Assembly: GCA_964016885.1 (NCBI GenBank)
Contig: OZ024740.1
Span: 282,472,001-282,536,000 of the forward strand
Length of the DNA stretch: 64,000 nt
Reading direction: 5' to 3'
DNA from: Eledone cirrhosa
Taxonomy: Eukaryota
Under the pieces are notes generated by a model that had not been told where the DNA came from, searched no databases, and saw only the letters and a program-made list of their open reading frames with translations. Below are positions 12,130-60,142 of the stretch, piece by piece (position 1 is the stretch's first letter; the number at the start of each line of letters is the position of its first letter). A program made the translations under genes and the position numbers.

Positions 12130-12561
12130 ACCCATCACTTTCTATTCAAATTAGAAACTATATATTCATAGCAAGTTTAATGACAAAGCAAGTTTGTTTT
12201 GAAACAGCGAGCGAAGTTCGAAATTCAGTAAAAACAGAAGCTTTTGTCGTATTTCTGACTGAAAAAATTTCAGCCTAGCATTCTAAACCCCATTTTTAAA
12301 CCCCACTATTTAGAAAAAAAGAAAATACGGCGAGAGCTTCTATTTCTACTGAATTTCTTCACTATACACATGCATTTGTACATACACACATATGTACATT
12401 TGTGAGTGAATATACACACGTTTATACACATACTATAACTATATTTCCTTATTTTATTTTTATATATCTCTTGCATTACTTTTATTTATATATTTTTTTG
12501 CCCGTTAAACTTTTGCCTTTCTTGAGGAGATTTTTCAAATGTTTCACTATGTTTTAAATTG

Positions 12562-12629
12562 CCTTTTCCGACGAACGAATGAGGACGTTTTTTGTATTCG
12601 TCTTATTCGGGAAACCTCTGGTAATGAGG
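12562..12629 (+). ncRNA. Type I hammerhead-like fold, C4 variant
   Basis: CCUUUU-CCGACGA-a[CGAAUGAGGACG...CGUCUUAUUCG]g-GAAAC-CUCUG-GUA-AUGAGG; helix I imperfect. Confidence 0.5.
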
Positions 12630-12654
12630 TAATTATACTGTATTGTTTATTATA

Positions 12655-21667: not shown

Positions 21668-22216
21668 GTATGTATGTATGTAAATGTATGTATGTATGTA
21701 AATGTATGTATGTATGTACAGTATGTATGTGTGTGTGTGTGTGTGTATGTATGTATATAAATGTGAAGAGCAAAATATATAACAGTAATTATATATATAT
21801 ATATATAGACACGATATACATTTCCGTGGGTACTTAGTACCTACTGGAATATCTATATCATTTATCTGAATTCTCCTTAATGTTGAGAAAAAAAATGTTG
21901 TATCATGCTGCTATTTCTAGTAACATGAAATATCAACTAGTCTATTATTCCCGCTCTTTCTAACGGCCCATTTGTGTGGTGGTCATTTTAACGGGTTGAT
22001 TCGTTCACCGGGCAGAAAGCAACACATCCACATCTACGTGGATTTATATCTAGTAGGTTTGGAAAAGCTATCTGAAGAGCTATATCTGTACATTGGAAAT
22101 TCTCTGAATTTCCAATCTTTTGATTAGCGAAACCGTCGGTCATGGCACTAGAAGAGGTAAATATTTTAATCGTATTTTAATTTATTTAAAAGATAGTTTA
22201 ATGTTTACTTGATCCG

Positions 22217-32116: not shown

Positions 32117-32400
32117 AAAATACGTAGTTTAGAAAGCCACAACAATGCAGAGGGAAATCTCGAGGTAGGAAGTGAATGATAGATAGGAGAAAGTGAAAAT
32201 TGGGAGAGACAAAGATGAAAACAAAACAAAGGTAGAAGGGTTACCGTGGTGGAGATTTGAAATCTCCACCACGGTAACCCTTCTAGCTTTGTTTTGTTTT
32301 CATCTTTGTCTCTCTCAATTTTCACTTTCTCCTATCTATCATTCACTTCCTACCTAGAGATTTCCCTTTGCATTGTTATGGCTTTCTAAACTACGTATTT
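32117..32400. repeat. ~140 bp-arm fold-back with 1 nt loop (centre 32259)
   Basis: ...gggttaccgtggtggagattt G aaatctccaccacggtaaccc... Confidence 0.9.
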
Positions 32401-51619: not shown

Positions 51620-52386
51620 TTGTTATGCTTTGGGAGGGTCATGTTGCCAATAAGAAACACACGCACCAGTTGCTTTCACTACAATTTTTTTATAAATTAA
51701 ATTTATAAATTTAAAAATTTATAAATTTCCGGTTGGTTGGTTGCTTCCATAACCGGACGGTTGTTCATATATTGTCAAAGTTCTTTCGTCACACATTATG
51801 TGACCTCTTCAGTGACTGGGGATTCTTTTCTTTGTTTTTGTGCCTCTCATTTTTTTCTGTCCTACGCCATCTTGTTTTTGCGTGTGTTGTGTGCTTCGTT
51901 TGCGCATGTGTTACATCCGGGTGTCTGTGTGTGTTTATATTTGTTTATTTATTTGTTATTTACATGTTACTGGTTGGTTGGTAGTTCTATGTGTGTGTGT
52001 ATTTTCATTTTGTCCTTAATTGTAAGTTGTGATGTTGCTATTCCATTCATGGATGGAATAGCAACATCACAACTTACAATTAAGGACAAAATGAAAACAC
52101 ACATACAACAAACAACCAACCAGTAACACAAAAACAAGATGGCGTAGGACAGAACAAAGGAGAGGCACAACACAAAGAAAAGAATCCCCAGTCACTGAAG
52201 AGGTCATAGAATGTGTGACGAAAGAACTTTGACAAAATATGAACAACCGTCCGGTTGTGGAACCAACCAACCAACCGGAAATTTATAAATTCTTAAATTT
52301 ATAAATTTAATTTATAATACATTGGAGTAAAAGCAACTGGTGCGTGTGTTTCTTATTGGAAACATGACCCTCCCAAAGTATAACAA
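51620..52386. mobile_element. Family G fold-back element with an HHR in each arm
   Basis: Arms invert around ~52050; HHR 52191-52233 (+) GUCA-CUGAAGA-g-GUCAUA..UGUGAC-GAAAG-AA-CUU-UGAC, and 51774-51816 (-). Confidence 0.8.
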
Positions 52387-55522: not shown

Positions 55523-55681
55523 GAAAATGTTTAACCGCGACGGCAGTCCAGAAATAGCCATCGAAACGGCTTGAGCTCGGCCGTTGGGGTTAAACATTTT
55601 CGTATTAAGCACTATACTACTCTAAGTATTGAGTACTATGGTGCGTTATGGTCCATCTGGTTCTTTACCACACCTCCTTCG

Positions 55682-55719
<38 letters not shown>

Positions 55720-56151
55720 CGAAGGAAATGTGGTAAGGAACCAGGTGGACCATAACGCACCAAAGTACTCAATACTTGAGGTAGTAGAGTGGGTAATAGG
55801 AACCAGTAAGACCCCGACAGCTGAGCTCAAGCCGTTTCGACGGCTAATTCTGGACTAAATGAAAATTTATCCTGGTATTTAAATAGCCGATCTTCTCAAG
55901 GGGTAATTCCATATATGGTCAAAGTGATTGTCAAAAATCAGTAGTAATTCTGTGGTTGCAAATTAGTAGGGGAGATGGTGGCTAAACCTGCCAGTAGGAG
56001 AAAGAGGGGAGGGGGTGGAGTAGACCCAATCAAGCGTTGGTAGTGCCAGCTACAGCTGAGCATGAGGTCAAAGAAGATAGGTCAAAGGAGGGGGAGGAAG
56101 TCGGAACGGTAGGTAGAACAATGGGGGGTAGAAATAGGAAAGAAAAAAAAG

Positions 56152-57565
56152 TTCGACATAGAGAGCTACTATGCTTCAATCACCTTACCGCTACTTACTG
56201 CCGCCTTGGACTTCGCCGAAACACTCGTGCCCATCACCGACCAGGAAAGAAAAATCATCCTCCACGCCAGGAAGACAGTCTTACTCTTTGACGACTCTAA
56301 ATGGATAAAAAGAGCTCCCGACTCACCCTTCGACGTCAGCATGGGCGCCACGGATTCGGCGGAGGTCACTGATCTTATAGGATTATTCCTAATAGCCAAA
56401 CTCACTGATATGTTTCCTGCATTCGGTGGTGGATTGTACCGTGATGATGGGCTCCTTGCCCTTAAAGGGTACAACCCCAGTAGTACAGATCGGGTCCGGA
56501 AACAATTTATCAGATTCTTCCGCGACTGGGGATTTAAAATAAATAGCCCTACAAACGTCCCTGACCCGAGTAAACTTCCTGGACGTAACCCTCGACCTCG
56601 AAAACGACCTGTACTACCCATACAGGAAACCTAATGCCAATCTGCACTACATCCACCGCCGATCAAACCATCCTAGGAACATCACAAACAACCTGGTCAA
56701 AAACATCTCCCTCCGCATATCCCGTTTGTCAGCTAATGAGCGGATATTCGATGAACATGCGCCTTATTACAACCAGGCCCTCAAGCGGAGTGGTTTCCGG
56801 GAGGAAATATCCTACTGTCCAGCTCCCATTAGCGGAACCAGCAGGAGACACCGCCGCTCACGCAATGTAACATGGTTCAATCCTCCCCACAACGCAGAGG
56901 TGACTACTCCCATCGGGAAACTATTCTTTAGGCTCATTGAAAAACACTTCCCATTACAACACCGCTACCACAACATAATTAACAAAAATACCATCAAACT
57001 CTCTTACAGCACTACACCAAACTTCGCACAATACATCGTCTCCTCTAACAACAAAAAACTCAACCCCGATGGCAGAAATAACCTAAATAGCAGTGGAGAA
57101 CCGACCAGGAGGTGTAACTGCCCGGATAGATCTATTTGCCCACTCGACAATAGATGCAGAGACCGTAATGTGATCTACCAGTGCAACGTGAGGACGGATA
57201 CCTCCAACAAAGCCTATATAGGATTTACCGCATGTGACTTCAAGACCCGGCTATACCAACATAGACATACCTTCCGAAACCCGGCCCGGCGTCACGCCAC
57301 TACACTTTCGGGCCACATATGGGACCTCAAGGACAACAACATCACCTATGATCTCACTTGGAGATTACTGTCCAGAGCCAATTCTTACACGGGAGGACGC
57401 CGTCCGTGCAATTTATGCTCGGAGGAAACTTTACAAATGCTGTTTTCGACGGACCAACTCCTAAACAAGAAAGATGAACTGGTTACTGCATGTAAACATA
57501 GATTGCGTAGGACTTACCTCGCCCTCAAACCCCATAATGACCCGGGGGGTAGACTAGGGCTATAA
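56152..57565 (+). pseudogene. Penelope-like RT and C-terminal GIY-YIG endonuclease, 5'-truncated, one frameshift near 56555
   Basis: FDIESYYASI, FDVSMGATDSAEVTDLIG, GLYRDDGL, VNFLDVTL, SNHP, VTWFNPP, CNC(x5)CPL(x3)C, VIYQ..(x)..YIG.T..FK.R..QH, CNLC.EE. Confidence 0.9.
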
Positions 57566-58784: not shown

Positions 58785-59431
58785 ATAAATGTAAGTATAT
58801 ATGTACACGTACATACATATATGTATACAGACGTACAGTATCACGTATATATATATATATATATATATACATACATACAGGTACACATATATGCATGTAC
58901 GTATCAGTTTAGCGGACGTTTATTATAACGCTCGCTTTGTCCATTTGTAAACAAACGGACAGCCTGATTTATGCCGTACGATGTTAAGGCAACCACGTCA
59001 CCTTTTTGCTCAACACTGACACAGGAACGATGTACTAGTTTCAAGCTTCTTAGCTATCGTCAGCACCGTATACCCTTCTGCCAGATGGTTGAACGTTCGA
59101 AAGTATATACTTTCCTTATGAAAATTAACGGCTGAGCAGCCTAATTTGCATATCGATTGAGTTCAGTCGACCAGGCGCACCGAAAACGATAAGTTGGAAT
59201 AGAATGAAACGAAATTTCATTTCTCACTCTTAGTACGACACTTACTTAAATGTAAGTATGTATGTATACTTACATGCATATATGTATACAGACGTACAGT
59301 AGCACGTATATATATATATATACGTGCTACTGTACGTCTGTATACATATATGTATGTACGTATACATACTTACATTTAAGTAAGTGTCGTACTAAGAGTG
59401 AGAAATGAAATTTCGTTTCATTCTATTCCAA

Positions 59432-59433: not shown

Positions 59434-59492
<59 letters not shown>

Positions 59493-59938
59493 AAGGTTTT
59501 TGATATTTTGGTGTTTCCCCGCATCCGAGACTGTATATCATACAGATGTATGAGAATAAATGACTTAATAATTCAGCCTATATAATAAGATCGATTGCCT
59601 GCTGCAACTGCCTGACCCTGCAAATATCATTCTGGCGCACTCTAATCATGTATAGATAAGACACGCGTGCATGCTACACGGGAGATTGTTTCATACACTG
59701 ACTACTCTAAGCTTTCCTCTTGCTTTATCTTCATAGACTGCCAACGCTTCATGTTTATCTTTATTTTCACTCTTATTTTCACTCTTGTTTTTATTTTATT
59801 TTATTTTTATCCTGTAACCTTTATATGTAAATTGCCATGCTATATCATTTGCTGAATGTCACCCCACTGTTGATCAATATGCGCATATGTTTTATGTGTC
59901 TCTTGGGTTGAAAAGGAGGTCAAGTATGTTATAAATAG

Positions 59939-59987
59939 TTGCTCCGAAGAATCCAAACCTCGGTTTGGAGGAAACAATTGTAAGCAA
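59939..59987 (+). ncRNA. Type I hammerhead fold, C4 variant with A.G-closed helix II
   Basis: UUGCU-CCGAAGA-a[UCCAAACC.uc.GGUUUGGA]g-GAAAC-AAUU-GUA-AGCAA, then AATAAA. Confidence 0.75.
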
Positions 59988-60035
59988 ATAAATGACTTAA
60001 ACTGAACTTTGATTACTGTAATCTCTCTCTCTCTC

Positions 60036-60142
<107 letters not shown>

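Follow-up and report, generated by a model that had tools for sequence, protein, structure and literature searches.

Hammerhead ribozymes are described with an established numbering of positions and established catalytic roles, in which a U at core position 4 is nearly universal and a G10.1-C11.1 pair closing helix II is highly conserved, although not absolute. Small hammerheads of Penelope-like elements (PLEs) reportedly number about 150,000 in the survey of Lunse et al. 2017. Minimal PLE hammerheads were inactive as monomers and had low activity as dimers in the accessible parts of the report of Cervera and de la Pena (2014, PMC4209133). According to the portions consulted of PMC11167929, the hammerhead of a lizard element required protein to cleave and was dispensable for insertion in vitro. 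When a type III hammerhead was mutagenised pairwise, activity was low for mutants of the CUGA turn, and only a C3-G8 swap gave rescue (PMC9901934, in the sections available). A viroid variant with a U4C change was much slower in vitro and sufficient in vivo (Ambros and Flores 1998, cited in PMC3088659), and the excerpts of the citing paper also document a natural U·U closure of helix II.

The window analysed here, a stretch of 64,000 nucleotides from Eledone cirrhosa, contains on its + strand at 59939-59987 a type I hammerhead fold, confirmed by reading the sequence, with a three-way junction of helices I, II and III and its ends in helix I. The two arms of helix I, UUGCU (59939..59943, +) and AGCAA (59983..59987, +), were assigned from sequence and pair counts, and the core C3-C4-G5-A6-A7-G8-A9 (CCGAAGA; 59944..59950, +; C4 at 59945) from sequence and copy counts. 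An A at position 10.1 (59951, +) faces a G at position 11.1 (59970, +), both varying among subfamilies; alternatively, A 59951 is the extra nucleotide after A9 of the published PLE register. RNAfold gives helix II (59952..59969, +) 7 bp and a CUCG loop instead of the 8 bp of the original prediction, because an eighth pair would close a loop of 2 nt. The sequence then continues with G12-A13-A14 (GAA; 59971..59973, +), the palindromic helix III ACAAUUGU (59974..59981, +) and the GUA site (59980..59982, +), whose last base is A17 (59982, +); by the hammerhead consensus cleavage is predicted 3' of it, 44 nt from the 3' end of the element. Position 17 is A, C or U in 13/13 subfamily representatives. 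The original prediction was thus right about the 5-bp helix I, the CCGAAGA core, the A·G closure and the GUA site, and also about the palindrome of helix III, but the full pairing of this helix requires a dimer: 2 bp form in the monomer and 8 bp only in the dimer. C3-G8, G5, A6, A9, G12, A13, A14, A15.1-U16.1 and H17 are all present, and two hammerhead features are absent, U4 (replaced by C4) and G10.1-C11.1 (replaced by A·G).

Rfam returned no hammerhead match for 59900-60020 at E up to 10, in a run that had no separate U4 minimal-hammerhead control, and for the whole window at E up to 5 no hammerhead was among the 150 matches listed of 363, nearly all of which are microRNA models below gathering scores. 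Sub-threshold microRNA-model scores also fall on long near-perfect inverted repeats at 59201-59424, 55626-55775, 32182-32336 and 51957-52134, which are possibly head-to-head element ends. Contigs assembled from three sequencing runs (X2, X5, X6), which may include the window's own source and are therefore not independent, carry other letters at 59933, 59938, 59951, 59970 and 59986, with none listed at 59945; a fourth run (X1) gave nothing. These contigs have no bearing on expression or cleavage, and no RNA dataset containing this repeat was listed.

The fold lies in a 5'-truncated PLE copy (3' end, pseudo-LTR; 59482..60026, +) of a family designated family 1, with ~98% identity to the repeats beside the ORFs of loci L031 and L034. 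Sequence inspection places (TA)n microsatellites on the left (59434..59488) and right (60036..60142) flanks of the insertion. This copy is solo and carries no ORF, and is probably an inert remnant; the sole ORF matches to the family 1 protein in the window are 36-40% identical and come from another family. The latter belong to a truncated PLE ORF at 56161-57535 (+), lying between two hammerheads with U3-A8 cores at 55899 (-) and 58661 (+). A full copy (L031) comprises an RT and endonuclease ORF of 830 aa, hammerheads on the sense strand on both sides, and an additional inverted copy of the repeat; the first hammerhead is ~290 nt before the ORF, the second follows it, and ~4.3 kb separate them. 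Hammerheads in terminal repeats on the strand of the ORF were found in L031, L264, L273 and L278. Within the ORF the RT (YRDD at 357) precedes a C-terminal GIY-YIG endonuclease (region near 710-830; YIG is present in L032-L034). Its motifs RWR, DKT, CxCX5C, CxxC and CxH, together with insertion into TA repeats, match the description of the Hydra clade of PLEs in the available sections of PMC8557442, an assignment that rests on protein motifs, the RT tree having held no named Hydra reference. The Naiad clade was rejected because the endonuclease is C-terminal here, and a retrozyme tandem repeat was likewise rejected, since the window copy stands alone and a coding master element exists in the family. 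Pfam gave no match on the 830-aa ORF, and viral contigs contained no relative of the element. The named protein relatives among the best matches are molluscan, and the genome measures 3.0 Gb.

The C at position 4 belongs to the family and not to one damaged copy. An exact 35-nt motif with C4 and A·G has 3,749 copies in the genome versus 0 for the reversed control, against 27 copies that combine U4 with A·G, and a damaged copy of a canonical family was thereby discarded as an explanation. By hand count of the listed rows, position 4 differs from C in 82 copies (53 U, which include those 27, 17 A and 12 G) and position 5 differs from G in 72 (59 A, 11 U and 2 C). C4 and G5 form a CpG, and the core-breaking G5A is at least as frequent as U4 (59 vs 53), so the U4 copies look like decay, and the spread of a U4 subfamily was not seen in family 1. 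Sister copies with the same helix II and another base at 10.1 (n=735) have C4 in 99 of the first 100, and older relatives (n=1,354) in 96 of the first 100, the matched list of the latter holding 4 U4 and 4 A5. Where the pattern left the core free, in an older subfamily of 631 copies, the first 100 copies included 93 with C4, 94 with G5 and 93 with G8. The three disjoint sets (3,749 + 735 + 1,354) bring the family 1 lineage to 5,838 hammerheads; C4 is lineage-wide and fixed in over 5,800 copies, and looks more constant than mere tolerance would predict.

The closure of helix II behaves differently. Among the first 100 of the 735 sister copies, nearly all of which (99) keep C4, the facing bases are C·A in 64, C·C in 20, U-A in 6, U·G in 5, C·U in 4 and C-G in 1, while the older 631-copy subfamily combines C4 mostly with a U-A closure, and 3 copies were listed with C4 and a G-C closure on the family 1 helix II. 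On a midpoint-rooted RT tree of 44 rows, from which L272 was left out because too little of its RT aligned (its ORF is 40-54% identical and cannot be tied to one hammerhead), family 1 elements form one clade (100/100), spanning ~0.4 RT changes per site, in which a terminal tip alone carries A·G. The A·G closure arose late, as a change of its own, where C4 was already present.

The second sequence cited in the original prediction (12562-12629) does have both deviations, but the two are related in origin, the second being a member of another family in the same retrotransposon clade. This family 2 copy is a 5'-truncated end followed by (TA)n (12353..12654, +), and its hammerhead (12557..12634, +) has C3 at 12568, C4 at 12569, an A 12575/G 12610 closure and site A 12623. 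Family 2 ORFs are mostly 33-44% identical to those of family 1 and lie across the midpoint root of the RT tree. Of its 1,186 copies, 100 were listed, with A·G in ~97 and with C4 in 73, U4 in 24 and A5 in 3; because 22/24 of the U4 copies share a loop variant, an amplified U4/A·G subfamily exists in this family. The two repeats of one family 2 element (L268:1033 and 4628, +) differ, the 5' one having U4 and the 3' one C4. U4 with A·G was also found in 4/5 copies of another family. Family 3 has a G-C closure and groups weakly (83/81) with family 1 on the RT tree; position 4 in its complete set of 54 matches is C in 22, A in 25, U in 6 and G in 1. The members of family 3 (L246-L257, L266) have a helix II of 4 bp, with A or C at position 4 in 47/54 and many identical A4 copies. 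An A at position 4 cannot mimic the base of the U-turn and is stranger than C4. A further family with a UGCA palindrome (L149, L160) has A4 in 2/4 sampled copies.

A wider view was obtained with a scored hammerhead descriptor on a genome sample of 1,264,000 bases, made of the window and 120 spaced 10-kb stretches, which gave 132 matches versus 9 in the reversed sequence. U4 is present in 118/132, with closures G-C in 45, U·U in 25, A-U in 25, C·A in 14, A·G in 6 and others in 3. In the same sample U4 accompanies 6 of the 8 A·G matches, and A·G accompanies 2 of the 10 C4 matches. Mismatched closures are routine in these ribozymes. Metagenomes provided 77 loci with related ORFs, 44 of them with a match on the sense strand; U4 is found in 51/55 matches, U·U (20) and G-C (19) are the commonest closures, and the reversed control gave 7. 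Two C4 candidates appeared there, L345:2680 (+) and L333:2464 (-), one sense and one antisense, neither with A·G, which suggests that C4 may recur in other animals. The L345 candidate has a helix I of 6 bp.

Other hammerhead-bearing repeats are common alongside these families. A permissive descriptor gave 15 hammerhead rows in the 64-kb window, 13 of them additional candidates. These come from about five repeat families, U3-A8 cores and closures of the U·U or C·A kind occur among them, and they lie at 22072, 34275, 34880, 46378, 49251, 54882 and 58661 on the + strand and at 59063, 55899, 54494, 51576, 48724 and 18221 on the - strand. Elsewhere in the sampled loci, L286-L311 represent a very young U4 family with many intact ORFs of 738 aa and an A facing a C at the foot of helix II; in L291-L293 the family forms a tandem array with a period of ~4 kb. 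L115:281-3381 (-) consists of 11 tandem units of ~310 bp, each with a U4 hammerhead, in a retrozyme-like array.

Comparison among subfamilies suggests that the fold is probably under selection. In 13 subfamily representatives, invariant columns make up 25/49 of the hammerhead versus 13/115 upstream and 10/37 downstream, a partly circular comparison in that the representatives were found by core patterns and picked for C3-C4, and one in which the far upstream columns align poorly. Because of that origin, the older 631-copy subfamily with the free core serves as the non-circular check. Positions 7, 10.1, 11.1 and 17 take 3-4 states among the same representatives, and pairing is held in 86% of cells versus 23-44% when slid. 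One pair of helix II changes on both sides (A-U to G-C) in 4/18 aligned relatives; this covariation is thin, consisting of a single two-sided pair change with a score that 13/500 shuffles reach. The helix III variant CAGCUG keeps the palindrome through a double change.

The fold, at one end of a Penelope-like retrotransposon, is likely a hammerhead RNA capable of self-cleavage, and its location and architecture place it with the minimal PLE hammerheads. The reading that we favour with reasonable confidence is that of a minimal type I hammerhead in the repeat of a PLE with Hydra motifs, with weak cleavage that depends on a dimer or a protein, in which C4 is fixed and A·G arose later and independently. 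By analogy with the systems described above, cleavage is probably weak and dimer- or protein-dependent, C4 probably being an old tolerated substitution, and the dimer is likely the active form. A transcript that spans both repeats, from 5' to 3', would carry two hammerheads ~4.3 kb apart, which would pair through their ACAAUUGU palindromes into a double hammerhead, where G12 and G8 would act as in other hammerheads. The long helix II would make the G-C closure dispensable, C4 would be a tolerated substitute in the turn at a cost in activity, and A·G would be a change at a site where mismatches are tolerated. Since the observed copies passed through reverse transcription with the site uncut, cleavage is likely to be infrequent or late. 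The C4 ribozyme may even be nearly dead, given the low activity of CUGA-turn mutants in the type III hammerhead (PMC9901934, in its available sections).

Predicted folding energies weigh against activity. For the window copy the inactive fold is predicted at -14.7 versus -10.6 kcal/mol for the hammerhead in the monomer, and at -35.5 versus -32.4 kcal/mol for the double hammerhead in the dimer. In the predicted off state, U2.1-C3-C4 pairs with G11.1-G12-A13, and the double hammerhead becomes the predicted minimum when the same copy is given U4. In several subfamilies with A at 11.1 the predicted sign is reversed and C4 favours helix I.

The first alternative is that C4 is actively selected: by throttling cleavage or steering folding it would leave uncut RNA for reverse transcription and hold back cleavage until the element protein acts, and in the youngest family a C4-G11.1 pair would lock G12 in an off fold. 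This is unlikely, although several observations are in its favour. The change to U is the commonest at the CpG C4 (53/82), yet a U4 subfamily was not seen in the family 1 clade; positions 7, 10.1, 11.1 and 17 change while C4 stays across the ~0.4 RT changes per site; the C4-G11.1 pairing probability is predicted at 0.59-0.91; and in several A11.1 subfamilies U4 is predicted to disrupt helix I (0.85 to 0.28; 0.90 to 0.25). Conversely, family 2 amplified both C4 and U4 (73 and 24 of 100 listed) and family 3 has C, A or U (22, 25 and 6 of 54). The predicted folding effect has opposite signs among subfamilies, the predicted off fold of family 2 uses another partner, and the independent subfamilies are few (about ten). 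The broader form of the idea, in which several lineages gave up U4 under selection and C4 or A4 is a brake until dimerisation or the element protein switches the ribozyme on, is equally doubtful.

In the second alternative, which is quite improbable, cleavage has been lost in this lineage and the fold persists as a signal for binding of the element protein or for dimerisation, or as part of a repeat promoter. Three families of this genome have left U4, and cleavage was dispensable for insertion in vitro in another PLE (PMC11167929, in the portions consulted). Moreover, 0 of 4 candidate copies of the young subfamily begin at the cut site (2 are point mutants and 2 internal deletions), in a search whose pattern misses junctions with T two bases upstream and which had no control position. 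Two family 1 internal deletions (L259 and L260, near 1502, -) end at or beside the predicted cut site, as found by a search that selected for ends at the site and had no baseline. Nevertheless, G5, A6, G8, A9 and G12 are the majority states in the old subfamily whose core was unconstrained, the positions that vary are those that a hammerhead allows (N7, H17), and the helix III palindrome survives its double change.

The third alternative, the idea of the original prediction that C4 and A·G form one linked structural variant with mutual compensation, is very improbable: the two do predominate together in two families that sit on separate branches of the RT tree, but the comparison of homologues that it called for found no linkage in the family counts or in the tree, C4 predating A·G and being kept across U-A, C·U, C·A, C·C and G-C closures, and A·G occurring with U4 in the amplified family 2 subfamily and in another family, while the genome sample points the same way and neither C4 candidate in the metagenome loci has A·G. 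The coupling fails and the two features vary independently. The novelty left after its failure is a lineage-wide fixed C4, together with a third family in which position 4 is C or A.

Hammerhead descriptors treat U4 as invariant, so searches of the published style miss families such as this one, with its more than 5,800 copies in a single genome, and such gaps may bias statements on which PLEs carry a ribozyme. Within the family 1 clade a single C4 core is combined with U-A, C·U, C·A, C·C, G-C and A·G closures, a natural series that the U4/C4 sister subfamilies of family 2 and the C4/A4/U4 states of family 3 extend. With such material one could test directly whether PLE hammerheads need to cleave or need to be slow. 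If C4 or A4 were indeed a brake, the series would be one of non-U4 hammerheads that CUGA-based searches miss.

In the papers and supplement parts covered by the literature search, no report of a fixed C4 family was found, and a natural U4C was found only as one viroid variant (PMC3088659, in the excerpts at hand). C4 could already appear in Lunse et al. 2017, in Ambros and Flores 1998 or in the supplements of PMC4209133, PMC8557442 or PMC3088659. The accessible parts of PMC6765202, PMC11300833, PMC6155905 and bioRxiv 10.64898/2026.07.22.740005 held nothing that alters the reading.

Among described systems, the non-LTR retrozyme consists of short tandem non-coding hammerhead units, whereas the window copy is solo and its family has a coding master. 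The viroid U4C variant has the same core substitution (PMC3088659, as far as its excerpts go), but it is one variant, whereas here a minimal, dimer-type ribozyme has the state fixed across its thousands of copies in the genome. With the Hydra clade, as described in the available sections of Craig et al. (2021, PMC8557442), the element has in common RWR in place of RWK, DKT, the CxCX5C linker, CxxC and CxH around a conserved E and N, the (TA)n insertion and the repeat hammerheads; published members are generally <3 kb with canonical hammerheads, in contrast to the ~4.3 kb between hammerheads and the C4 found here. The minimal PLE hammerheads in the accessible parts of PMC4209133 share the type I topology, the long helix II, the short helix I, the palindromic helix III, the place in both terminal repeats and the unpaired base after A9, and the published rows of Hydra magnipapillata and Drosophila willistoni have U opposite U at the base of helix II. 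The rows examined of that PLE alignment are all U4, with a G10.1-C11.1 consensus; unlike these published PLE hammerheads, the lineage described here has a fixed C4 and a closure that wanders among six or more states.
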